From the NCBI GenBank assembly GCA_963677595.1, contig OY782041.1, positions 768,001-832,000 of the forward strand: a stretch of 64,000 nucleotides of DNA, written 5' to 3'. A model generated the notes under the pieces. It was not told the DNA's origin and made no database searches. It saw nothing but the letters and a program-made list of their open reading frames with translations. The DNA is from Spirochaetia bacterium. GTDB taxonomy: Bacteria > Spirochaetota > Spirochaetia > CAKZLE01. Below, piece by piece: positions 13,165 to 62,798 of the stretch (positions within the stretch are counted from its first letter, which is position 1; each line of letters opens with the position of its first letter). The position numbers and the translations under genes are program-made.

Positions 13165-15513
13165 ATGGCTAGCGACAATCGGGAATCACGAATGTTGGAC
13201 TTTGCGAGGACCTTCTCCGAGATGGACAGGGAGCAGATTTTCCACTTTGCCGGTATCCTCTTCAACATCTCGGAGAAGATCGGGTTCGAGAACAACGTGA
13301 ACAGGATACTCGAGACTGCCGGGAAGTACCTCAATGTGAGCAGGGCCTACATCTTCGAGGATGACCTGACGCACAACTTCACCAGCAACACCTTCGAGTG
13401 GTGTAATGAGGGGATAGAGCCGCAGATCAATGAGCTTCAGCAGATCCCGTATGAGATCATCGCCTACTGGCCAGAGACCCTGAAGAATCAGAACATGATC
13501 TTTACCCACGATATCCACAGCCTCCCCGATGCTGTGGTGGAGATCCTAGAACCCCAGAGTATCCGCTCCATAGCGGTATACCCCCTGAGGGTAGATGATG
13601 ACCACCAGCTCATCGGATTCATCGGCTTCGATGAATGCACGAGGCAGAGGGTCTGGACGAATAGCGAGCTCACCTACCTCGCTATCACAGCCCGGATCCT
13701 CTCATTGCTCTACGACCAGATCAGGCAGGAGGTTCGACTCAACCAGCTCTTCGATGACCACCCCTATGCCCAGATCTTCTGCAGGGAAGAGGACCTCGGG
13801 ATCGTTGATGCCAACCAGGCATTCCTTGATCTGTGCGGGTACAGCAAGGAGGAGGTCCTGGGTCTCTCCGGCTGGGATTTCGGGCTCTTCGATTCCGGCA
13901 CGAACAAGGACGAACTCCTCACGTACCTGAAGGGGCATGAAACGTTCAGGATCTTCGAGAGCAGGTTCTACTCGAAGGACGGGACCATGTTTACCGGCCT
14001 CTTCGCGGGGCAGATGATCGAGCTCTCCGGGGTCAGGTCCTGGCTCATCGTCATTACCGATATCTCCAAGCGCAAGAAACTCATCGCCGATATCGAGGAG
14101 CAGAAGAACCGCTTCGAACAGATCATCGACGCGACCGGTGTCGGCACCTGGGAGTGGGAGGTCAAGACCGGGAAGGTGACGTTCAATGAGGAATGGGCCA
14201 ACATGCTCGGCTATACCCTCGAGGAGCTTCACCCAATCTCGATAGAGACATGGTTCAGCCTCATGTATCCTGAAGACAGGCCTGAGAGCGACAGGCTGCT
14301 TCAGGAACACTTCAGAAAAGTCACCCCCTGGTATGAATGCGACATCCGCATGATTCACAAGGACGGAAACCTGGTCTGGATCAACGACAGGGGAAAGGTC
14401 ACACAGTGGGATGAAGAAGGGAACCCTGTCAGGATGTTTGGCACCCATACGGACATCACCGTCAGGAAGCAAGAGGAACTCGACCTTGAGGACTCGTTCA
14501 ACTCCCTCATGGAAGGAGCCAAGAACAAGTCCGAGTTCCTCTCCCAGGTCACCCATGAGTTCAAGACCCCGCTGAACATCATCCACAGTCTCAGCAGCCT
14601 CCTGCTCGACATGGAACTGACCGAGACGCAGAAGAACTACCTGCGGAAAATCGAGAAGTCCGCGAATGAGCTCTACGGGTCAGTCTCGAACCTCTTCGAC
14701 CACACAAGGATCGAGGCAGGAAGATTCATCACAAGCTCATCCGACCTCTCCTTCACAGACCTCTTCTCCGAGATAGCTGATTCATTCAGCTTCACCAGTG
14801 AGGATACAGGACTCCCGCTTCTGAGCGAGATCGATCCAGGGCTGCCCGAGTGGATCCATTCAGACGGGACCATCCTGAAACACATCATCACGAACCTCAT
14901 CGGTTTCGCCTTCAAGAATGCGAGAAAGGGAACGGTCCACCTGATCGCGAAGAAGTCAGCCTCCGGAGACCGGCTGCTGCTGACGATACTGTTCAGGGGA
15001 GGAAGGGAGAATCAGGCACTCATACAGTCTCTGGTCAGTGAGGATCCCCTTACCTATGAGGCAGGATTGAGCATGCTCACCACGAAGGAGCTGGTGAACG
15101 TGCTCGGTGGAAGGCTCACCGGGGAACAGATCGGAGCAGAGACGACCCGTCTCACCGTCGATTTCCCCCTGGTGTCGGGACGCAAGGAGAATACCAGGAC
15201 GACCGGGACACCTCCTCTTCCTGACCAGGGAATCACTCTTGCAGGCCCAGCCGGCACCCCGAAACAACCCAGCAGCGAGGAACTCCTCAGCATGGTGACC
15301 GACCTCACGGACTTCAAGGAGACCATCGCCCTCAATGACCCTGCGGCAGCCTCGCGAACCTTCAACAGGCTGCTTGAACAGGAATACTTCAGGGACCTTC
15401 TCGGACAGATTACCAGGGATGAGATCACGCACTGCATCAGGAGCTATCGTTTCGCGGAACTGCAGGACCTGGTCTCAGAGCTGATTGACGGGTTCAGGGG
15501 GGTGCAGAGATGA
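13165..15513 (+). CDS. GAF-PAS-PAS-HisKA sensor protein with degenerate HATPase domain
   Basis: GAF (TFEWCNEG...IGFIGFDEC), PAS domains, H-box THEFKTPLN; N, G1 and G2 boxes degenerate. Confidence 0.85.
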   Translation: MASDNRESRMLDFARTFSEMDREQIFHFAGILFNISEKIGFENNVNRILETAGKYLNVSRAYIFEDDLTHNFTSNTFEWCNEGIEPQINELQQIPYEIIAYWPETLKNQNMIFTHDIHSLPDAVVEILEPQSIRSIAVYPLRVDDDHQLIGFIGFDECTRQRVWTNSELTYLAITARILSLLYDQIRQEVRLNQLFDDHPYAQIFCREEDLGIVDANQAFLDLCGYSKEEVLGLSGWDFGLFDSGTNKDELLTYLKGHETFRIFESRFYSKDGTMFTGLFAGQMIELSGVRSWLIVITDISKRKKLIADIEEQKNRFEQIIDATGVGTWEWEVKTGKVTFNEEWANMLGYTLEELHPISIETWFSLMYPEDRPESDRLLQEHFRKVTPWYECDIRMIHKDGNLVWINDRGKVTQWDEEGNPVRMFGTHTDITVRKQEELDLEDSFNSLMEGAKNKSEFLSQVTHEFKTPLNIIHSLSSLLLDMELTETQKNYLRKIEKSANELYGSVSNLFDHTRIEAGRFITSSSDLSFTDLFSEIADSFSFTSEDTGLPLLSEIDPGLPEWIHSDGTILKHIITNLIGFAFKNARKGTVHLIAKKSASGDRLLLTILFRGGRENQALIQSLVSEDPLTYEAGLSMLTTKELVNVLGGRLTGEQIGAETTRLTVDFPLVSGRKENTRTTGTPPLPDQGITLAGPAGTPKQPSSEELLSMVTDLTDFKETIALNDPAAASRTFNRLLEQEYFRDLLGQITRDEITHCIRSYRFAELQDLVSELIDGFRGVQR

Positions 15514-16622
15514 CAGGGAACAAGACCATCCTCATCGTGGATGACGTCATAGAGAACATCGACATCCTGATCGGCATCCTTGAGGGGAGCTACCGGATCC
15601 GGGTCGCGACCTCAGGGAAGGAAGCCCTTTCCCAGGTACGGAAAGAGCAGCCTGACCTCATCCTCCTCGACTTCATGCTTCCTGACATGAGCGGGTACGA
15701 TGTCTGCAGGGAGATCAAGGCGAACGAGGAGACTACTGCGATCCCGGTCATCCTCACATCTTCATATACGAACATCCAGAACGAGGAGCTCGGCCTGCGT
15801 GTCGGAGCTATCGATTTCATCTATGAGCCCTTCGTCTCTGACCTTGTCCGGATTCGGGTGCAGAACCACCTGCAGATCTATGATAAGCACCGCGAACTCG
15901 AGGATGAGGTCTCTCGAAGGACCAGGAAAATCCAGCAGGTCCAGGATGCCATGATCGCTTCCTTCGCGTTCATGACCGAAGCCAGGGACCAGGAGACGGG
16001 TGACCATATCTTCCGTACCCAGCAATACTTCGAGATCCTCGCAGAAGAGGTCTACTCCTGCAGGCCGGGCCTATTCAGCTTCGAGTCCATCAAACCCATG
16101 GCCCTTTCGAGCTCCCTCCACGACATCGGGAAGATCGGGATCCCGGACCAGATTCTGCTCAAGCGGGGACCGCTCTCACCCGAGGAGTTCGAGATCATGA
16201 AAGGACACCCGAGGATCGGCGGGGAGATTCTGAGGAAGACCAGTGAATACCTCGGGGGCAAGGAGAACGACTTCCTCCTCTTCGGCAAGGAGATCTCTTC
16301 CTGCCACCATGAACGGTGGGATGGGACGGGGTACCCCAACGGGTTGAAGGGAGAGAGAATCCCCATTTCGGCACGGATCATGTCCATTATCGACGTCTAT
16401 GACGCCCTGCGTTCCGAACGGCCATACAAGAGGGCCTTCTCCCATGAGAAATCGATCTCAATCATCTTTGAGGGTGACGGGAGGGTACAACCTGAACATT
16501 TCGATCCCCTCATCCTTGAGGCTTTCTCCAACCTTGAACCGGTTATGGAGAGGATCTCCTCCGCTGCCCATCCAAGCCAGTATAGCAAGGACAGCGAGAA
16601 AGTCTTCAATGTGAACATCTGA
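15510..16622 (+). CDS. REC-HD-GYP response regulator (RpfG-like cyclic-dinucleotide phosphodiesterase)
   Basis: ILIVDD...LLDFMLPD; HDIGKIGIPD, HHERWDGTGYP, DVYDALRSERPYK; ATGA overlap with the kinase gene. Confidence 0.92.
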   Translation: MTGNKTILIVDDVIENIDILIGILEGSYRIRVATSGKEALSQVRKEQPDLILLDFMLPDMSGYDVCREIKANEETTAIPVILTSSYTNIQNEELGLRVGAIDFIYEPFVSDLVRIRVQNHLQIYDKHRELEDEVSRRTRKIQQVQDAMIASFAFMTEARDQETGDHIFRTQQYFEILAEEVYSCRPGLFSFESIKPMALSSSLHDIGKIGIPDQILLKRGPLSPEEFEIMKGHPRIGGEILRKTSEYLGGKENDFLLFGKEISSCHHERWDGTGYPNGLKGERIPISARIMSIIDVYDALRSERPYKRAFSHEKSISIIFEGDGRVQPEHFDPLILEAFSNLEPVMERISSAAHPSQYSKDSEKVFNVNI

Positions 16623-16684
16623 CCTACTATACCCATTCATGCCAACCAATGAGTTTCATCTGCTATAGGGGTATGCAAGGGCAC

Positions 16685-16775
16685 AAAAAAAACCCCTCAG
16701 GGAAAAGGAGGTTAAAAACCCTGAGGGGAACATCAAAAGGAGGTCGATGAAAAAAGTCTTATGCTCTTTCATAAC
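16685..16775 (-). ncRNA. Candidate small RNA with two anti-SD (ACCUCCUUUU) loops
   Basis: Perfect 10-bp GC stem 16693-16702/16719-16728 plus U8 tail on the minus strand; AAAAGGAGGT at 16703-16712 and 16735-16744; upstream TGTAAC-N14-CGTTG. Confidence 0.55.
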
Positions 16776-16780
16776 AATAA

Positions 16781-16805
16781 CAACGTCCTGCCACAAAAGG
16801 TTACA
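16781..16805 (-). promoter_or_regulatory. ECF-sigma-type promoter TGTAAC-N14-CGTTG
   Basis: Same motif recurs upstream of the OMP-like genes at 61947-61970 and 62880-62904. Confidence 0.55.
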
Positions 16806-16873
16806 AAAAAACTTTTTCAACAACTATATAAATAAGTTATCTTTGCCGGATAACTGATTTAACTTTGTTTCGC

Positions 16874-17437
16874 CTATAACATAGTCATAACCGAAAAATA
16901 AATCAAGTACCTGCAACACATTTTCACACTTTTTTTATCGAATGAAAACTGCTGCTTCAAACACTATACATAGCGTAAGATTCTTCTTCCTACGCTATAT
17001 GGTCAATTCTTCATGGAAAAGGGCTGTCTGGTATTCTCCAGGACATCCCTCCAGAGGCTCCCCTCGATCTTGACCCTGTTGCGTTCTGCAACAGCTACCC
17101 GGATCGGGATATGCACGAACTTGTTGTTCAGGAGGCTGATCAGGGTCCTCGTCTTTCCCGCCATGGCAGCGTGGACCGCATGGGCCCCGAGCCGTGAGCA
17201 GTAGATGGAATCGTTCGGGTTGGCAGGGGCACTTCGGATGATGTAGCTCGGGTCGATGTACTTGATGTTGACCTCGATCTCCTCATCATCGAAATACTGC
17301 GCGATCCTCTCCTTGAGGTACTCCCCGATGTTCACCAGCTTCTTGTTTCCTGAGGCATCGGTCTCCTTCGTCTCCTCGAGCAGGTTCTGTCCTGCTCCCT
17401 CAGCGACGAGGATGACGGCATGGTCCCGGTCGAGGAT
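16874..17437. repeat. 564-bp direct repeat, left copy (target-site duplication)
   Basis: Appears identical to 19596-20159 (offset 2722); abuts the IS left inverted repeat. Confidence 0.92.
17003..17437 (-). pseudogene. Duplicated 3' fragment of pfk
   Basis: Encodes the same C-terminus (...[13 protein letters not shown]) as the intact pfk; an in-frame stop lies immediately inside the IS end. Confidence 0.9.
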
Positions 17438-19595
17438 CCGGTCTTTTTACCAGAATTAGCGAGTATGCCCATTTTCCCCATTTCAGCCCTGTCTAGGGCT
17501 ATTTTTTTGGCCATTACGAATTTTTAAAGAAATATTACTGTGCTACGTTGTACCACGTTGCGCCACGCTACCAAATGTGTTACACTATATTACACAGGAG
17601 GTAGCCCATGTATGTCTCCGTTATCCCAGAACACGCAACCGGCAAGCATCTGATGCAGTACGTCACAAGTACCCGCAAAGGGAAAAAGACTAAGAAAACC
17701 ACGGAGGAAACCATCGGCTATGTCGAGGACTTCCTTGATCGCTATGATGACCCGGTCGCTCACTTCAAAGCAGAGGCCAAGCGGATCACAGCAGAGCGGA
17801 AAGCTCAGCAGAAGACTATAGGGGTTGAACTCCAACCCGATGCACGGCTTCCCTTCGATCCGGATACCCACAGCTTCTCCCGTGAATTCAACATCGGCCA
17901 TGCGGCGATCAGTCAGGTATTCCACACCCTTGACCTCCACACCTTCTTTGATCGGCGCCGGATAAAGCTTGATGTGCAGTTCAATCTGACCGCTGTCATG
18001 AAACTCCTCATCTATGAGCGTATTCTGGCTCCTGCCTCCAAACGCGCTACCTGGAAGTCTCGAAGGCGATACTTTGACAAGATGGACTTCAATCTCAATG
18101 CGGTATACCAGACCCTTTCTCACATCAACCCCTGGACTGATGACCTGATCGCTCACCTGCATGCGAAGATGGTAGAACTCTATGACCGGGATACCACCCT
18201 CATGTACTATGATGTGACCAACTACTACTTTGAGATCGACGAAGCTGATGATTTTCGCATAAGGGGAATCTGCAAGGAGCACCGTCCGTTACCGATCGTG
18301 CAGATGGGGCTGTTCATGGATGAACAGGGCTTCCCGGTGTCCTTTGACTTGTTTCCCGGTAATGTCAATGACTGCCTGACCTTTGAAGCAATGAGCGAGC
18401 ATGCCAGAACCCTGTTTGAGGCCAAGCATCTGATCTTCGTAGCTGACAAGGCCATGCTCACGGGGAACAACATCGCAGATGTGATCCTCCATCATAACGG
18501 GTATGTCTTCAGCAAGTCGGTACGGGGCGGGACGAAAAAACTCAAGCAGGCGGTCAGGGATCCTCATGGCTATCTGCGGTTTGCGGAAGACGGGAAGCTC
18601 ATTGCGCCTGGTGACAACGAGACGGCAGTCTGGTCCAAGTACAAGATCCTTGATGAGCAGAAACCCACCTATGTGACGAACACGGACGGCAAGCGGGTAG
18701 CCTCCTCAGGTGTTGGCCACTACCAGATCATCTATTGGTCACGTGCGTATGACAAACGAGCCAAAGCGCAGCGGCTGGAAGCGGTAGAGCATGCGCTTGA
18801 TGCATCATCACGGCAGAGTAAGGAAGTCATCGACAGTAACTACGGGAAGAACAAGTATCTGATGACCATGGTCTATGATCCCCAGACCAAGAAGTATACC
18901 GACAACTATAAGGCCAAGACGGAGTTTGATGCTGCCAAGCTTGAAGAAGATGAGTCGTTTGACGGATTCTATGTCATTGAGACCAATGTGACGGGGCTCA
19001 GACCGTTTGTCGATGCCAGGGGACATGAGACCGGTGAACTCGAGCCTGCGTTTGCCACACCTCACCGCTGGCTCAAAGAAGAGGGCATGCTGCAGCTCAA
19101 CCGGCCGATTGGCCCTCTGGATATTATTACGATGTACCATGGGCTGTGGAAGATCGAACAGTCCTTCAGGGTCACCAAGAGTGAGTTGGATGCCCGTCCG
19201 GTCTTTCTGTCTTTAGAGGATCGAATTCATTCCCACTTCCTTACCTGCTTCATCGCTCTGCTCATCCTGCGTATCCTGGAGCATGAACTCGATCATGAAT
19301 TCTCAACAGAGCAGATAGGGACTTCCCTGAATCAGGCGAATGTCGCAGAGATCACTGGGGCAACGTACATGACTTTGCAGTACGATGAAGTCCAAAAGGC
19401 TTTGAAGGAAAAGATGGGAATCCCGTTCGGCATGAATGTATACTCGAGAGCTGCGATCAAGAAGATGATCGCTGAGACGAAAAAAAACCGGAAACGGTAG
19501 GGACGTACTACAAGTTTTTTTAGCCAGGTGCTGACCTATTGTGTTGTATTGCAATAGGTTAGCGCCGTCATTTCCTAAATTGGTAAAAACACAGG
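17438..19595 (+). mobile_element. IS1634-family insertion sequence (2158 bp)
   Basis: Imperfect terminal IRs CCGGTCTTTTTACCAGAATTAG / rc CCTGTGTTTTTACCAATTTAGG; single DDE transposase; internal terminator-like hairpin AGCCCT-gtct-AGGGCT-A-T7 at 17485-17508. Confidence 0.9.
17608..19500 (+). CDS. IS1634 family transposase
   Basis: YYDVTNYYFE, GICKEHRPLPIVQMGL, FVADKAM, YHGLWKIEQSFRVTKSELDARPVF. Confidence 0.93.
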   Translation: MYVSVIPEHATGKHLMQYVTSTRKGKKTKKTTEETIGYVEDFLDRYDDPVAHFKAEAKRITAERKAQQKTIGVELQPDARLPFDPDTHSFSREFNIGHAAISQVFHTLDLHTFFDRRRIKLDVQFNLTAVMKLLIYERILAPASKRATWKSRRRYFDKMDFNLNAVYQTLSHINPWTDDLIAHLHAKMVELYDRDTTLMYYDVTNYYFEIDEADDFRIRGICKEHRPLPIVQMGLFMDEQGFPVSFDLFPGNVNDCLTFEAMSEHARTLFEAKHLIFVADKAMLTGNNIADVILHHNGYVFSKSVRGGTKKLKQAVRDPHGYLRFAEDGKLIAPGDNETAVWSKYKILDEQKPTYVTNTDGKRVASSGVGHYQIIYWSRAYDKRAKAQRLEAVEHALDASSRQSKEVIDSNYGKNKYLMTMVYDPQTKKYTDNYKAKTEFDAAKLEEDESFDGFYVIETNVTGLRPFVDARGHETGELEPAFATPHRWLKEEGMLQLNRPIGPLDIITMYHGLWKIEQSFRVTKSELDARPVFLSLEDRIHSHFLTCFIALLILRILEHELDHEFSTEQIGTSLNQANVAEITGATYMTLQYDEVQKALKEKMGIPFGMNVYSRAAIKKMIAETKKNRKR

Positions 19596-20159
19596 CTATA
19601 ACATAGTCATAACCGAAAAATAAATCAAGTACCTGCAACACATTTTCACACTTTTTTTATCGAATGAAAACTGCTGCTTCAAACACTATACATAGCGTAA
19701 GATTCTTCTTCCTACGCTATATGGTCAATTCTTCATGGAAAAGGGCTGTCTGGTATTCTCCAGGACATCCCTCCAGAGGCTCCCCTCGATCTTGACCCTG
19801 TTGCGTTCTGCAACAGCTACCCGGATCGGGATATGCACGAACTTGTTGTTCAGGAGGCTGATCAGGGTCCTCGTCTTTCCCGCCATGGCAGCGTGGACCG
19901 CATGGGCCCCGAGCCGTGAGCAGTAGATGGAATCGTTCGGGTTGGCAGGGGCACTTCGGATGATGTAGCTCGGGTCGATGTACTTGATGTTGACCTCGAT
20001 CTCCTCATCATCGAAATACTGCGCGATCCTCTCCTTGAGGTACTCCCCGATGTTCACCAGCTTCTTGTTTCCTGAGGCATCGGTCTCCTTCGTCTCCTCG
20101 AGCAGGTTCTGTCCTGCTCCCTCAGCGACGAGGATGACGGCATGGTCCCGGTCGAGGAT
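19596..20159. repeat. 564-bp direct repeat, right copy
   Basis: Matches 16874-17437; contains the 3' end of intact pfk and its downstream ATAGCGTA/TACGCTAT hairpin. Confidence 0.92.
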
Positions 20160-21053
20160 CCGCTTCTTCAGGTGTTCGAGCAGGCCGTTCGGCCCATTGA
20201 GGTCGAAGGGGTTCTCGGGGATGAGGCAGAAGTTGACATCACTCATCGCCAGGGCGGTATGGGCTGCGATGAACCCGGACTCACGCCCCATGACCTTCAC
20301 GAGTCCGATGCCGTTGATCGCGTCGGTCGCCTCGATGTGGGCTCCCCGTACCGACTGCACGGCAGTGCTCACGGCAGTATCGAACCCGAACGAGCTCTGG
20401 ATGAAGGAGAGGTCGTTATCGATGGTCTTCGGGATCCCCACGATGGCGATCCTCAATCCACGCTTCTCGATCTCCTCACCTACCTCGTCAGCTCCGCGCA
20501 GGGTCCCGTCGCCGCCGATGGTGATCAGGATGTTCACGTTCATCCGTTCGAGGGAATCAACGATCTCCTCGACCCGGTCACCGCTCCCGCGAGCTGAACC
20601 GAGGATCGTCCCGCCCTTCATCTGGATGTCATCGACGACATCCGGGTCGAGGGCAACAGGTTCATAGGGGCTGTCGGGCATGAGTCCGCGGTACCCGTAC
20701 TGGATGCCGCTGATCCTCCTGACCCCGTAGCGGTACCAGAGGCACCTAACGACTGCCCTGATGACGTTGTTGAGCCCCGGGCAGATCCCGCCGCAGGTGA
20801 CTACCGCCGCATGGACATGGGCGGGGTTGAAGTAGATCCTGTCACGGGGACCGGCAACCTCGATCAGGTCCTCATTGCCGATCTCGGGGATCCCGTCGTC
20901 TCCCGCATGGGCGTCGATATTGAAGAGGATCCGCTCGGAATCCTGTACGTAGTTGGCGATACTGTCACCCTTGATGTTTGACATCTCGATCGGTGACTTA
21001 ATCTTAGCCGGCCCGAGGGTCCGTATCGTGAAATCATAATGATTCTTTGTCAT
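19725..21053 (-). CDS. pfkA: 6-phosphofructokinase, clade X (probably ATP-dependent)
   Basis: VTCGGICPGLN, GGTILGSARG, IGGDGT, PKTIDND, MGRESG; start taken at ATG 21053. Confidence 0.92.
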   Translation of the reverse strand: MTKNHYDFTIRTLGPAKIKSPIEMSNIKGDSIANYVQDSERILFNIDAHAGDDGIPEIGNEDLIEVAGPRDRIYFNPAHVHAAVVTCGGICPGLNNVIRAVVRCLWYRYGVRRISGIQYGYRGLMPDSPYEPVALDPDVVDDIQMKGGTILGSARGSGDRVEEIVDSLERMNVNILITIGGDGTLRGADEVGEEIEKRGLRIAIVGIPKTIDNDLSFIQSSFGFDTAVSTAVQSVRGAHIEATDAINGIGLVKVMGRESGFIAAHTALAMSDVNFCLIPENPFDLNGPNGLLEHLKKRILDRDHAVILVAEGAGQNLLEETKETDASGNKKLVNIGEYLKERIAQYFDDEEIEVNIKYIDPSYIIRSAPANPNDSIYCSRLGAHAVHAAMAGKTRTLISLLNNKFVHIPIRVAVAERNRVKIEGSLWRDVLENTRQPFSMKN

Positions 21054-60583: not shown

Positions 60584-61168
60584 CTAGAAGATAGCGAACA
60601 TCGCAGAGACGCCTGCCTTGATCTCAGGGTTCGTGAATAACAGCGCCGGATCGATATCTGCGATATCGGTCAGGCTGTAGCCTGTTGCCATCAGGCCGCT
60701 GATGCCGATGGAGAAGTCTCCCAGCTCCAAGTCAGCAGTCCCCCTGAGGTTCAGTCCCCACTCCATGGGATCCGGTCCGAGGTCGGTCCCGACCTCTTCC
60801 CCGATGTTCACGGTGAAGTTCGGTCCGGCTGAAATACCAAGCCTGAGGATGTTGAACAGTGACAGCGAAAGTCCCGCATTGGCATAGACATCGAGTGCCA
60901 GCTCCTCATCGATTCCCGGGGGAGTGACCAATGCCAGTGCATTGACCTCGATGACGGACAGGTTCATCCGTATGTCAGCCCCGAAGGTGTAGCTGGATGG
61001 GTCCTTCAGCATCTCAGGATTTATTCCCATATTCTCAGCTTCCAGGTCCAGTGTGGTGTTCAGCAGTGCTGCAGGTCCCACACGAAGACCGATCAGATCA
61101 ATAGCGAATATTGATGCTGGGACAAGCATCAACAGCGCCATCATGACGATTACCAGTTTTTTAGCCAT
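60584..61168 (-). CDS. Secreted OMP-like beta-barrel protein, paralog A
   Basis: Signal peptide MAKKLV...SIFA, alternating hydrophobic strands, C-terminal AGVSAMFAIF. Confidence 0.7.
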   Translation of the reverse strand: MAKKLVIVMMALLMLVPASIFAIDLIGLRVGPAALLNTTLDLEAENMGINPEMLKDPSSYTFGADIRMNLSVIEVNALALVTPPGIDEELALDVYANAGLSLSLFNILRLGISAGPNFTVNIGEEVGTDLGPDPMEWGLNLRGTADLELGDFSIGISGLMATGYSLTDIADIDPALLFTNPEIKAGVSAMFAIF

Positions 61169-61291
61169 AATAAGCCCCCTCATTTCCAACTCTTTGGTTA
61201 CTCATAATAACGTTCCATATATATAATCCAATCTGGGCTGGGAAAGTTACACATCTTCAGAATTACGGCAGGTCAGCTTGGCCTCAGGCCG

Positions 61292-61321
61292 AAAAAAAGG
61301 CACATCCGAAGATGTGTCTTT
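61292..61321 (-). terminator. Intrinsic terminator with UUCG loop
   Basis: AAAGACACATC-TTCG-GATGTGCC-T7. Confidence 0.85.
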
Positions 61322-61341
61322 CTCTCATGCAGGTATGCTGC

Positions 61342-61887
61342 CTAGAGCTGGAAGAGTGCGGAGACACCGACGATACCGCCGATATCATTCTCGTCAACGA
61401 CTGCTTCAGGATCATCAGTATATCCCATGACATAGCTGCTGAGGATGAACGGCCCGAGGATCAGGTCAGCATTGACCTTTGCATTGTATGCCAAGATAAC
61501 ACCATCTGTAAAATCAGTCAAATAGTTCGCTCCGACTCCAGCACCAAGACCGATGATCCCGAGATCCAGGTAGAGGCCTGCATCAGCCATGCCCATTAGG
61601 ACTCCCAGGTCACTATCATAGAATGCAAGATTACTGATCTGGAACAGGCTGAAATCGAGTCTCAGTTCAGCCCCATACATCAGGTCTTCAGCGGTGATCT
61701 GTTCAGCGATCAGATCAGCATTGTCTATAATATCACCAAGGGAAACAGGTACCAGATCATTATACTCATCATATTGCATTGGCATAAGCATTGCGGTAGC
61801 ACCGATCGACAGTCCGTCCCCTGCGAAGACTGCAGCAGGGATAGCCAGCATCACAGCTATCATGATAATTACTATTCTCTTCTTCAT
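61342..61887 (-). CDS. Secreted OMP-like beta-barrel protein, paralog B
   Basis: Signal peptide MKKRIV...AVFA; C-terminal VGVSALFQL. Confidence 0.72.
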   Translation of the reverse strand: MKKRIVIIMIAVMLAIPAAVFAGDGLSIGATAMLMPMQYDEYNDLVPVSLGDIIDNADLIAEQITAEDLMYGAELRLDFSLFQISNLAFYDSDLGVLMGMADAGLYLDLGIIGLGAGVGANYLTDFTDGVILAYNAKVNADLILGPFILSSYVMGYTDDPEAVVDENDIGGIVGVSALFQL

Positions 61888-61946
61888 TTTCTTCCTCCCA
61901 AACTATTTACTCATTTTTTCTTAGTAACTTTCTCTCAAAGGTTATA

Positions 61947-61970
61947 CAACGATACAGACAAAACGTTACA
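61947..61970 (-). promoter_or_regulatory. ECF-type promoter TGTAAC-N13-CGTTG
   Basis: Motif shared with 16781-16805 and 62880-62904. Confidence 0.55.
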
Positions 61971-62130
61971 AAATTGTATGCATGATTTGATGAAAGTTAC
62001 ATTGCTCATTGATACCTATTATACATATGCTTTTGAATATAGCAAGAAAATATTCAGATGCCGAGTATTTCAGTAAGGAAATTCATGCAGTACCGATAGG
62101 AATCAGTCAAGTTCCCATCAATAACGACAA

Positions 62131-62174
62131 AGGAGCTGCTGCGGAAAGGTATGTGCCTTTCCGCAGCAGCTCCT
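62131..62174. terminator. Perfect 19-bp stem-loop downstream of paralog C
   Basis: AGGAGCTGCTGCGGAAAGG-tatgtg-CCTTTCCGCAGCAGCTCCT. Confidence 0.75.
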
Positions 62175-62198
62175 CATTCACCAGGTATGATCCCTATC

Positions 62199-62798
62199 CT
62201 ACAGCTGGAAGAGGACCGACACCCCTGCCCTACCCGTCATATTCCCCAGGTCGGGATTGTCTATAAATTTCTTAATATCCTTGGTATAGCCCATGAAGTA
62301 GGCACTGAAGACAGTCTCCCCCAAGATGATATCAGCTTCGGCTTTCACGTTATAGCCCCACCGGTAAGCCTCTACATCCTCATGATGCCCTTTGTCATTA
62401 ATAACGATCAGGTATTTCGGCCCTGCTCCGAGCCCAAGCCCGACAAGTCCGAGGTCCGCATAGAGCCCGACATTCGCAGATGCCTCGATGGAAGGCCCTA
62501 TATCCAAAGCTTCAATCACTATGTTCCCATACTGGTCATACACATCAATGATCGTCTTTGGTAGATAGATCCCGTTCACACTCGCCTGAAGAATACCGAA
62601 ATCGATCCTGGCCTCTGCTCCGAGTGTGAAGTCTTTTGGATCCGGTTTGATTGTATCGATCTTATCTATCAGTTCATTGAACGTCATCGGGGCATTATAG
62701 AGAGCCGTAGGGCCCACCCAGATGCCGTCGCCGGCGAATACCGCAAATGAAACCAGCAGCATGCATACTGCCAGTACTGTGATCCTGATCTTGTTCAT
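62199..62798 (-). CDS. Secreted OMP-like beta-barrel protein, paralog C
   Basis: Signal peptide ...AVFA-GDG; C-terminal AGVSVLFQL; aligns by eye with paralogs A and B. Confidence 0.72.
   Translation of the reverse strand: MNKIRITVLAVCMLLVSFAVFAGDGIWVGPTALYNAPMTFNELIDKIDTIKPDPKDFTLGAEARIDFGILQASVNGIYLPKTIIDVYDQYGNIVIEALDIGPSIEASANVGLYADLGLVGLGLGAGPKYLIVINDKGHHEDVEAYRWGYNVKAEADIILGETVFSAYFMGYTKDIKKFIDNPDLGNMTGRAGVSVLFQL

Follow-up and report, generated by a model that had tools for sequence, protein, structure and literature searches.

Sequence comparison points to a real and conserved small RNA (sRNA) family of the Spirochaetia that is apparently undescribed. Within the window, the whole 64,000-nt stretch of spirochaete DNA analysed here, the family member is a predicted non-coding RNA of 88 nt on the minus strand (~16772-16685). 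Our main reading, to which we give a probability of about 0.6, is that this sRNA pairs over ribosome-binding sites and so serves as the Hfq-independent, repressive noncoding arm of an ECF envelope-stress response. No Rfam 15 family reached its gathering score in the window or at 16 homologous loci, and we found no description of the sRNA in the open literature, with subscription journals mostly outside coverage. A preliminary description of this DNA had proposed a stand-alone, minus-strand sRNA gene of a spirochaete with anti-Shine-Dalgarno (anti-SD) seeds, and the comparative evidence backs that proposal.

Architecture and functional strand

The sRNA is preceded by a TGTAAC -35 element (16800..16805, minus strand) and a TGTTAT -10 element (16777..16782), with the +1 predicted near A16772 (+/-2). 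Its 5′ segment AUGAAAGAG (16764..16772) is predicted to pair weakly with a U-rich tract as a 5′ stem, both in the MFE structure and in folds of 60 homologues. The seed extension GACUUUUUUCAUCG (16745..16758) is complementary to AUG-AAA-AAA-GUC (Met-Lys-Lys-Val) starts and runs into the first of two copies of the 10-mer ACCUCCUUUU (16744-16735), an anti-SD motif that resembles the 16S 3′ tail of the source genome (G000); the tract UUUUUUCAUCGACCUCCUUUU spans 16755-16735. The second copy (16712-16703) lies in the 16-nt loop of an intrinsic terminator hairpin (16693..16728) whose perfect 10-bp stem joins 16728-16719 with 16702-16693, and a U8 tail (16692-16685) follows, the U-run being kept in homologues. 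The hexamer, the identical 10-mer pair and the GC terminator with its U8 tail had all been pointed out before and are all present in the sequence. The layout CCTCCT..CCTCCT..T5 is unique to this locus within the 4.3-Mb source genome, and blastn of that genome gave no paralog, leaving the sRNA as single copy.

A 111-nt minus-strand stretch folds with a z score of -3.0 relative to shuffles, of which 1 in 200 was as good. For comparison among relatives we built a covariance model from 60 members; the set was gathered by sequence pattern, so motif conservation within it is partly circular, the promoter and the tract lying outside the pattern. The terminator is paired in 97% of cells and shows two-sided changes at 7 of its 10 pairs. 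It is the one hairpin to survive from the three originally drawn: the first (UUAUG/CAUAA) is paired in 42% of cells, under the shuffled mean, and begins upstream of the predicted +1, and the second (CAUC/GAUG) is only 65% paired. Both 10-mers had likewise been placed in loops. This holds for motif 2 in the terminator loop, which has an unpaired probability of 0.85-1.0 and an opening cost of 0.03 kcal/mol. Motif 1 (mean unpaired probability 0.6-0.8, opening cost 1.2 kcal/mol) has no fixed loop and is better called a largely unpaired linker because hairpin 2 reaches only that 65%. The architecture is thus a 5′ stem, a linker with an anti-SD motif and a terminator with an anti-SD loop.

The 5′ part is more variable. 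In per-sequence folds of the 60 homologues the U-rich tract usually forms part of a weak 5′ stem whose register varies, and a 5′ stem of fixed register was unsupported on the MAFFT alignment; the U and CA positions of the seed extension are 80-90% conserved among the same members. Sphaerochaetaceae keep the 3′ module and have a longer, structured 5′ domain. Sphaerochaeta members form a basal 5′ stem in which the tract position pairs as AGAAAGAG/UUUUUUCU, and Sphaerochaeta s.s. has CUA where others have CAU. Visual inspection of this longer domain in Sphaerochaeta had suggested a pseudoknot, which proved unnecessary, as RNAalifold gives a plain long hairpin.

The terminator contains U-G and G-U wobbles that are possible on the minus strand only, which fixes the functional strand. 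The preliminary description had considered the plus strand as an alternative, either as a gene for a 36-aa peptide (type I toxin-antitoxin-like) or as an RNA with CsrA-binding GGA loops. A plus-strand ORF of 36 codons with an AGGAGG does start at 16747. However, its SD-AUG spacing is too short and its equivalents in 17 loci encode 4-43 aa, are unconserved beyond the first codons and have CTG or TTG for ATG in two cases; no conserved small hydrophobic ORF of the type I toxin-antitoxin kind was found opposite the RNA in these loci. There is also no sigma70-like promoter within 16550-17050. As for a plus-strand sponge of the CsrB/RsmZ type, CsrA was not found in G000 or in three of the four relatives tested (it is present in one of five genomes overall), and promoter, wobbles and U tail all belong to the minus strand. 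We regard a functional plus strand as largely refuted.

Distribution and genomic setting

Homologues of the sRNA were found by blastn (E<=1e-5) in 19 of 40 relatives, comprising all five of the same family and 14 of 35 from other families of the class. The covariance model (E<=1e-3) matched 29 of the 40 relatives, some of these matches being near training sequences. The Rfam and covariance search that had been suggested as a check returned no Rfam match, a model that recovers most relatives and a covarying terminator. In a phylum sample searched at a model E<=0.001 with stricter filters, by which weak matches were lost, 11 of 121 genomes match, three of them outside the class. A pattern scan of named genomes gave at least 119 stretches; the 80 with titles comprise 74 from spirochaetes, two unlabelled and four under other names. 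The spirochaete matches fall in Sphaerochaetaceae, Sediminispirochaeta, Salinispira, Spirochaeta and Pleomorphochaeta. Of the four with other, non-spirochaete names, L054 and L072 look similar to spirochaete members and probably represent misbinned contigs; the remaining two (L125 and L126) lack the architecture and were rejected as members. At the family level, two anti-SD motifs are present in 20 of 24 representatives, and the UUUUCAU tract (anti-AUG) is kept in 13 and missing in 11.

Some genomes hold second or third copies (G026, G019, G035, G022, G013, G011, G039, G020, G010 and G028; loci L241-L261). These have the same CCUCCUUU-loop terminator and different 5′ parts, many with TGTTAC/TGTAAC promoters and some with sigma70-like ones; copies are in tandem in G020, and double hairpins occur in G028 and G010. 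From their sequences, the extra copies seem to form a clan of sRNA paralogs.

In the window the sRNA lies between a convergent HD-GYP response regulator gene (15510-16622, plus strand) and a duplicated 3′ piece of pfk. Among 20 BLAST loci, pfk is upstream on the same strand in 13 and pgi is convergent in 12; the neighbours differ in 3 of these 20 and in 7 of 9 additional loci, a pattern that fits a self-contained gene. The common arrangement would also suit an element that works in cis only, serving pfk as 3′ UTR and terminator and halting the convergent pgi, and RNA contigs from relatives do extend upstream beyond the predicted +1. The changing neighbours speak against such an element, as do a promoter conserved at a fixed distance and a loop sequence conserved far beyond the needs of a terminator. 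Furthermore, a separate 13-bp hairpin with a weak U tail (16968..17000, minus strand) lies just 3′ of the pfk stop codon; it may terminate pfk transcription and so keep pfk apart from the sRNA promoter. A cis role with no function in trans is thus very improbable in our judgement.

Nine public RNA runs had small word shares, and their contigs came from relatives only. Aligned with the window, homologue contigs cover just the RNA span plus loose ends. At the locus of one relative (L004), all four runs of one study cover the intergenic RNA in contigs that are blind to strand, ends and level. Three of these have no loose end and stop at the terminator; the word depth was 433 vs 4.5 on pfk in one contig, the other three being level with their flanks. 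One contig from a second study begins at the U tail. As a sign of sRNA transcription these contigs give a weak hint only. A contig from run X5 on L004 carries, near 1526, an untemplated stretch that is A-rich on the RNA strand and follows the homologue within the terminator region; possible origins are a heteropolymeric 3′ tail and an artefact of the library.

On the pfk side of the locus is a DDE transposase gene (17608-19500, plus strand) whose terminal inverted repeats (17438-17452 / 19581-19595) are imperfect. Perfect direct repeats of 567 bp (16874-17440 = 19596-20162) lie on either side of it; they duplicate the pfk 3′ end and the downstream hairpin and leave pfk intact. Long target duplications are made by elements of the IS1634/IS1549 type.

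The promoter and its probable ECF sigma factor

The sRNA promoter has the form TGTAAC-N16/17-TGTT, with a spacer of 17 nt here and of 16 nt in most relatives. An ECF-type promoter had been recognised from the start, with the -10 element misplaced as TGTAAC-N14-CGTTG. In aligned sRNA homologues the hexamer (TGTAAC in 17 of 18, TGTTAC in one) is followed after 16-17 nt by (T/G)GTT and CGTTG is not kept; both this alignment and the ECF promoters show that N14-CGTTG is specific to the strain and overlaps the true -10, TGTT. The same T-G-T-T is kept in 30 ECF-gene promoters from other genomes.

G000 has three sigma70-family genes, one of them ECF-sized. No FliA-sized sigma was found among its three sigma70 region-2 matches, which together with the lack of CsrA would fit a non-flagellated spirochaete. 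The ECF sigma gene is located directly 3′ of a cysS-like gene (locus L023, 1213-1743, minus strand), starts directly after TGTAAC-N16-TGTT without a leader and is followed by a zf-HC2 anti-sigma gene with a hydrophobic segment. This same motif precedes all 31 ECF sigma orthologues examined, that is, the gene itself and the best 30 of 37 genomes with a match (loci L023, L024-L053). At a promoter matrix score >=8, 28 of the 31 ECF loci were recovered vs 1 of 31 coding controls, that control coming from the sRNA's own ECF locus. The orthologues are mostly leaderless, with the start codon 32-33 nt past the first T of TGTAAC; since leaderless genes fix the distance from TGTAAC to the start, the sRNA +1 would be at ~16772, giving the length of 88 nt. 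The ECF-type promoter is therefore supported by a motif common to the sole ECF sigma gene of the genome and its orthologues, and this sharing would place the sRNA with ECF-dependent sRNAs. ECF sigmas are described as usually autoregulating (PMC7826278).

When an independent matrix was trained solely on the ECF-gene promoters of the 30 other genomes, the sRNA promoter came third of 8,650,672 positions in G000. The best 30 promoter-bearing genes in this genome include 13 predicted to be exported (background 9%, p 7e-7); Pfam matches for genes of the regulon are mostly absent or below cut-off. We infer the envelope label from the ECF class, the hydrophobic segment of the anti-sigma and the composition of this regulon. 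Two lipoprotein-like genes with MKKV starts adjoin one another at G000:C1 1045478-1047077 (plus strand); the first is the top duplex match to the sRNA and itself has the ECF promoter motif, and 14 nt of the second are perfectly complementary to the sRNA tract.

Farther along the window (60584-62798, minus strand) are three tandem paralogous signal-peptide proteins of 181-199 aa, each with its own ECF promoter motif. Those starting at 62798 and 61887 are among the best promoter-bearing genes, and the third, at 61168, was picked up by a matrix trained on the sRNA. The paralog at 61887 (paralog B) had been put forward as a plausible target of the sRNA. It ranks 448th of 3587 genes by duplex energy and, because the same ECF promoter motif lies ahead of it, more likely belongs to the ECF-activated regulon. 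Pfam and NCBIfam hold no family for the tandem paralogs. The Atlas neighbours of paralog B include OMP beta-barrel clusters, a weak resemblance with recognition below threshold, and its AlphaFold model, made without an alignment, is uninformative (pLDDT 30).

The ECF motif precedes 20 of 24 family-level sRNA homologues and is found at 64 of the at least 119 pattern-scan loci, 1 of these by chance. A further 54 testable loci, mostly from Sphaerochaetaceae, have no ECF motif, and 49 of them carry a sigma70-like promoter vs 0 of 38 control windows, by a lax pattern that also matches 13 of 62 ECF-type sRNA loci. Within Sphaerochaetaceae a sigma70-like TTGAYW-N17-TANNNT replaces the ECF motif (L064, L065, L068, L071, L082, L091 and ~50 similar loci). 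Despite this promoter type of Sphaerochaetaceae sRNAs, the ECF gene of G016 is still behind its own ECF motif.

Predicted targets and relation to known sRNAs

We propose the following sequence of events for the ECF response. The membrane-anchored zinc-finger anti-sigma would free the ECF sigma, which would then transcribe its own leaderless mRNA, outer-membrane and lipoprotein genes and the 88-nt RNA. The open ACCUCCUUUU motifs are predicted to nucleate on Shine-Dalgarno sequences, apparently without Hfq (PF17209), which was not found in any of five genomes including G000, with control genomes positive. From the motif 1 duplex, the extension UUUUUUCAU is predicted to pair with AUG-AAA-AAA beyond an mRNA bulge of 2-4 nt and thereby to displace the sRNA's own weak 5′ stem. 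The preferred messages would be those with Met-Lys-Lys/Arg starts, which encode signal-peptide proteins, among them ABC/TRAP solute-binding proteins and lipoproteins, and blocked 30S loading would lower the export load. The sigma's leaderless mRNA would be immune to the sRNA because it has no SD. The conserved and accessible CU-rich, SD-complementary motifs place the sRNA in the C-rich anti-SD mode of action of LhrC, RsaE, AbcR and NfeR1, their conservation being partly imposed by the search pattern.

The bulge in this scheme corrects an earlier claim that the tract is the exact complement of an ideal initiation region. Such pairing implies GGAGG-3nt-AUG, a spacing that occurs in 6 of the 854 genes with a GGAGG; the modal spacing is 5-7 nt, as given by a gene caller biased towards 4-10 nt. 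Since 3 nt is too short, real targets need a bulge on the mRNA side.

Predicted targets were scored on 3587 crude gene calls of G000, using a heuristic gene caller and a heuristic export label. With the 24-nt seed, 33 of the top 100 duplexes involve exported proteins vs 14 for the anti-SD core alone and a background of 9%; 14 shuffled extensions gave a mean of 9 and a maximum of 17. The label had demanded an early K/R, and we therefore dropped this rule. Without it, 34 of 100 are exported (background 10%) with an AUC of 0.658, vs a mean of 13 (max 23) and an AUC of 0.569 (max 0.626) for 20 shuffles. Within the 815 strong-SD genes the AUC is 0.69. M(x)K[KR] starts are found in 156 of 326 exported vs 178 of 3261 other proteins. 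In the relative G006 (400 kb, 339 genes) the AUC is 0.71 vs 0.643+/-0.02 (max 0.692) for 20 shuffles, and the top-30 exported count of 9 is inside the shuffled range (mean 7.4, max 11). The signal is weak in another relative, G016 (400 kb, 355 genes), with an AUC of 0.603 vs 0.536+/-0.04 (max 0.617). The bias toward signal-peptide partners that the preliminary description had asked about is thus predicted beyond shuffles in the source genome and in G006 and is weak in G016. Net energies after accessibility costs, calculated for the top 200 only, are modest at -11 to -16 kcal/mol, and the resulting top 20 comprise 10 exported and 10 other proteins. Seven high-ranking genes picked by hand include four ABC/TRAP solute-binding proteins and one amidase. 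Leading predicted initiation regions on G000:C1 include starts at 930461-931711 (minus strand) and, on the plus strand, at 3338046, 2028979, 1700005 and 1046310.

A more specific and tentative suggestion is that, across the class, the sRNA may select exported proteins by the codons of the signal-peptide N-terminus (SD + AUG-AAA-AAA) and not by gene-specific sites, throttling export under one conserved ECF sigma whose leaderless mRNA escapes. A simpler possibility, which we consider unlikely but of real weight, is an ECF-driven anti-SD sRNA that draws its selectivity from the CCUCCUUU motifs and their flanks only. The U-tract and CAU would then be the 3′ strand of its own 5′ stem, and the targets would be broad or different strong-SD mRNAs (metabolic, transport), as for AbcR1/2 or NfeR1. 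The absence of the tract from 11 of 24 family representatives suits this possibility, as does a minimal conserved unit, across distant homologues and paralogs, that consists of the terminator and its CCUCCUUU loop. Divergent members also form 5′ stems at the tract position with unrelated sequence, as in the Sphaerochaeta pairing above, the sRNA is frequently located between pfk and pgi, and the core alone already reaches an AUC of 0.61-0.62. On the other hand, the tract sequence is 80-90% kept and yet changes register and predicted pairing partner, and it is the order of the tract and not its composition that gives the exported-protein enrichment, among SD-matched genes too. Both points speak against the simpler possibility.

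We also considered that the RNA acts via a protein or the ribosome, with CU-rich loops that titrate an RNA-binding protein, or as a sponge for G-rich RNAs. Repeated identical loop motifs recall Csr/Rsm RNAs, a likeness discussed for LhrC (PMC4132741), and some genomes have tandem or multiple copies. Against this, the motif complements the SD and resembles the 16S tail, a known mark of pairing sRNAs, the complementarity to initiation regions is non-random, and CsrA was not found in G000 or in three of four relatives. We therefore judge titration improbable, and pairing over ribosome-binding sites remains our preferred reading.

The best reading by analogy is that the sRNA would work like FoxI/FoxJ, is built like LhrC and is a member of no Rfam family. 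FoxI and FoxJ of Fusobacterium nucleatum are sigmaE-dependent sRNAs reported to repress envelope-protein mRNAs (PMC9546586, PMC11005410). As described there, they share with the spirochaete sRNA a promoter common to an autoregulated ECF gene, an Hfq-less host and a C-rich seed; repression of envelope mRNAs is shown for FoxI/FoxJ whereas that by the spirochaete sRNA is predicted. Their promoter is given as AAC...GTCWAA in contrast to TGTAAC-N16/17-TGTT, and the spirochaete sRNA differs further in its two full anti-SD 10-mers, its anti-AUG-Lys-Lys extension and its phylum, with no common Rfam match. LhrC1-5 of Listeria monocytogenes (RF00616) is described as having a 5′ stem, a single-stranded linker, a terminator loop and redundant CU-rich anti-SD motifs, together with a link to envelope stress, no requirement for Hfq and pairing that runs from the SD into the coding region via stem opening (PMC4132741). 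LhrC is also the best-scoring Rfam model for the spirochaete sRNA, with 20.2 of 110 bits, followed by suhB (mmgR/suhB, RF00519) with 19.6 of 41. The gathering threshold was reached for neither of these nor for RseX, and the sRNA is not an LhrC member since it scores 20 bits against the required 110 (E 1.1). The reported LhrC control by the two-component system LisRK and its three UCCC motifs (PMC4132741) differ from the ECF promoter and two ACCUCCUUUU motifs found here.

Enterobacterial MicA, RybB and MicL offer a similar design, with a sigmaE/ECF noncoding arm described as repressing exported proteins (OMPs, Lpp) (PMC11005410). These are reported to be Hfq-dependent (PMC9546586), in contrast to the sRNA of G000, where no Hfq was found, and Rfam similarity to them is likewise absent. 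The anti-SD motifs of AbcR1/2 and NfeR1 of Sinorhizobium meliloti are described as repressing many transporter mRNAs, including those of periplasmic solute-binding proteins, a class also among our top predictions, and AbcR2 depends on an alternative sigma (PMC8844928). The regulators given there are LsrB and RpoH1; these sRNAs are alphaproteobacterial and share no Rfam match with ours. The seeds of MicA, RybB and MicL are at the 5′ end and are not anti-SD loops.

If our main reading is true, the design of an ECF sigma plus a repressive sRNA, found in Proteobacteria and Fusobacteriota, reaches a third distant phylum and does so without Hfq. A promoter consensus and a first regulon are obtained for a conserved ECF sigma of the Spirochaetia, and the Sphaerochaetaceae, which appear to have switched to a sigma70-type promoter, provide a natural experiment in sRNA rewiring. 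The suggestion that the sRNA selects exported proteins via Met-Lys-Lys signal-peptide codons is a testable claim and, if true, would give the noncoding arm of the spirochaete envelope response a generic, code-based targeting rule.
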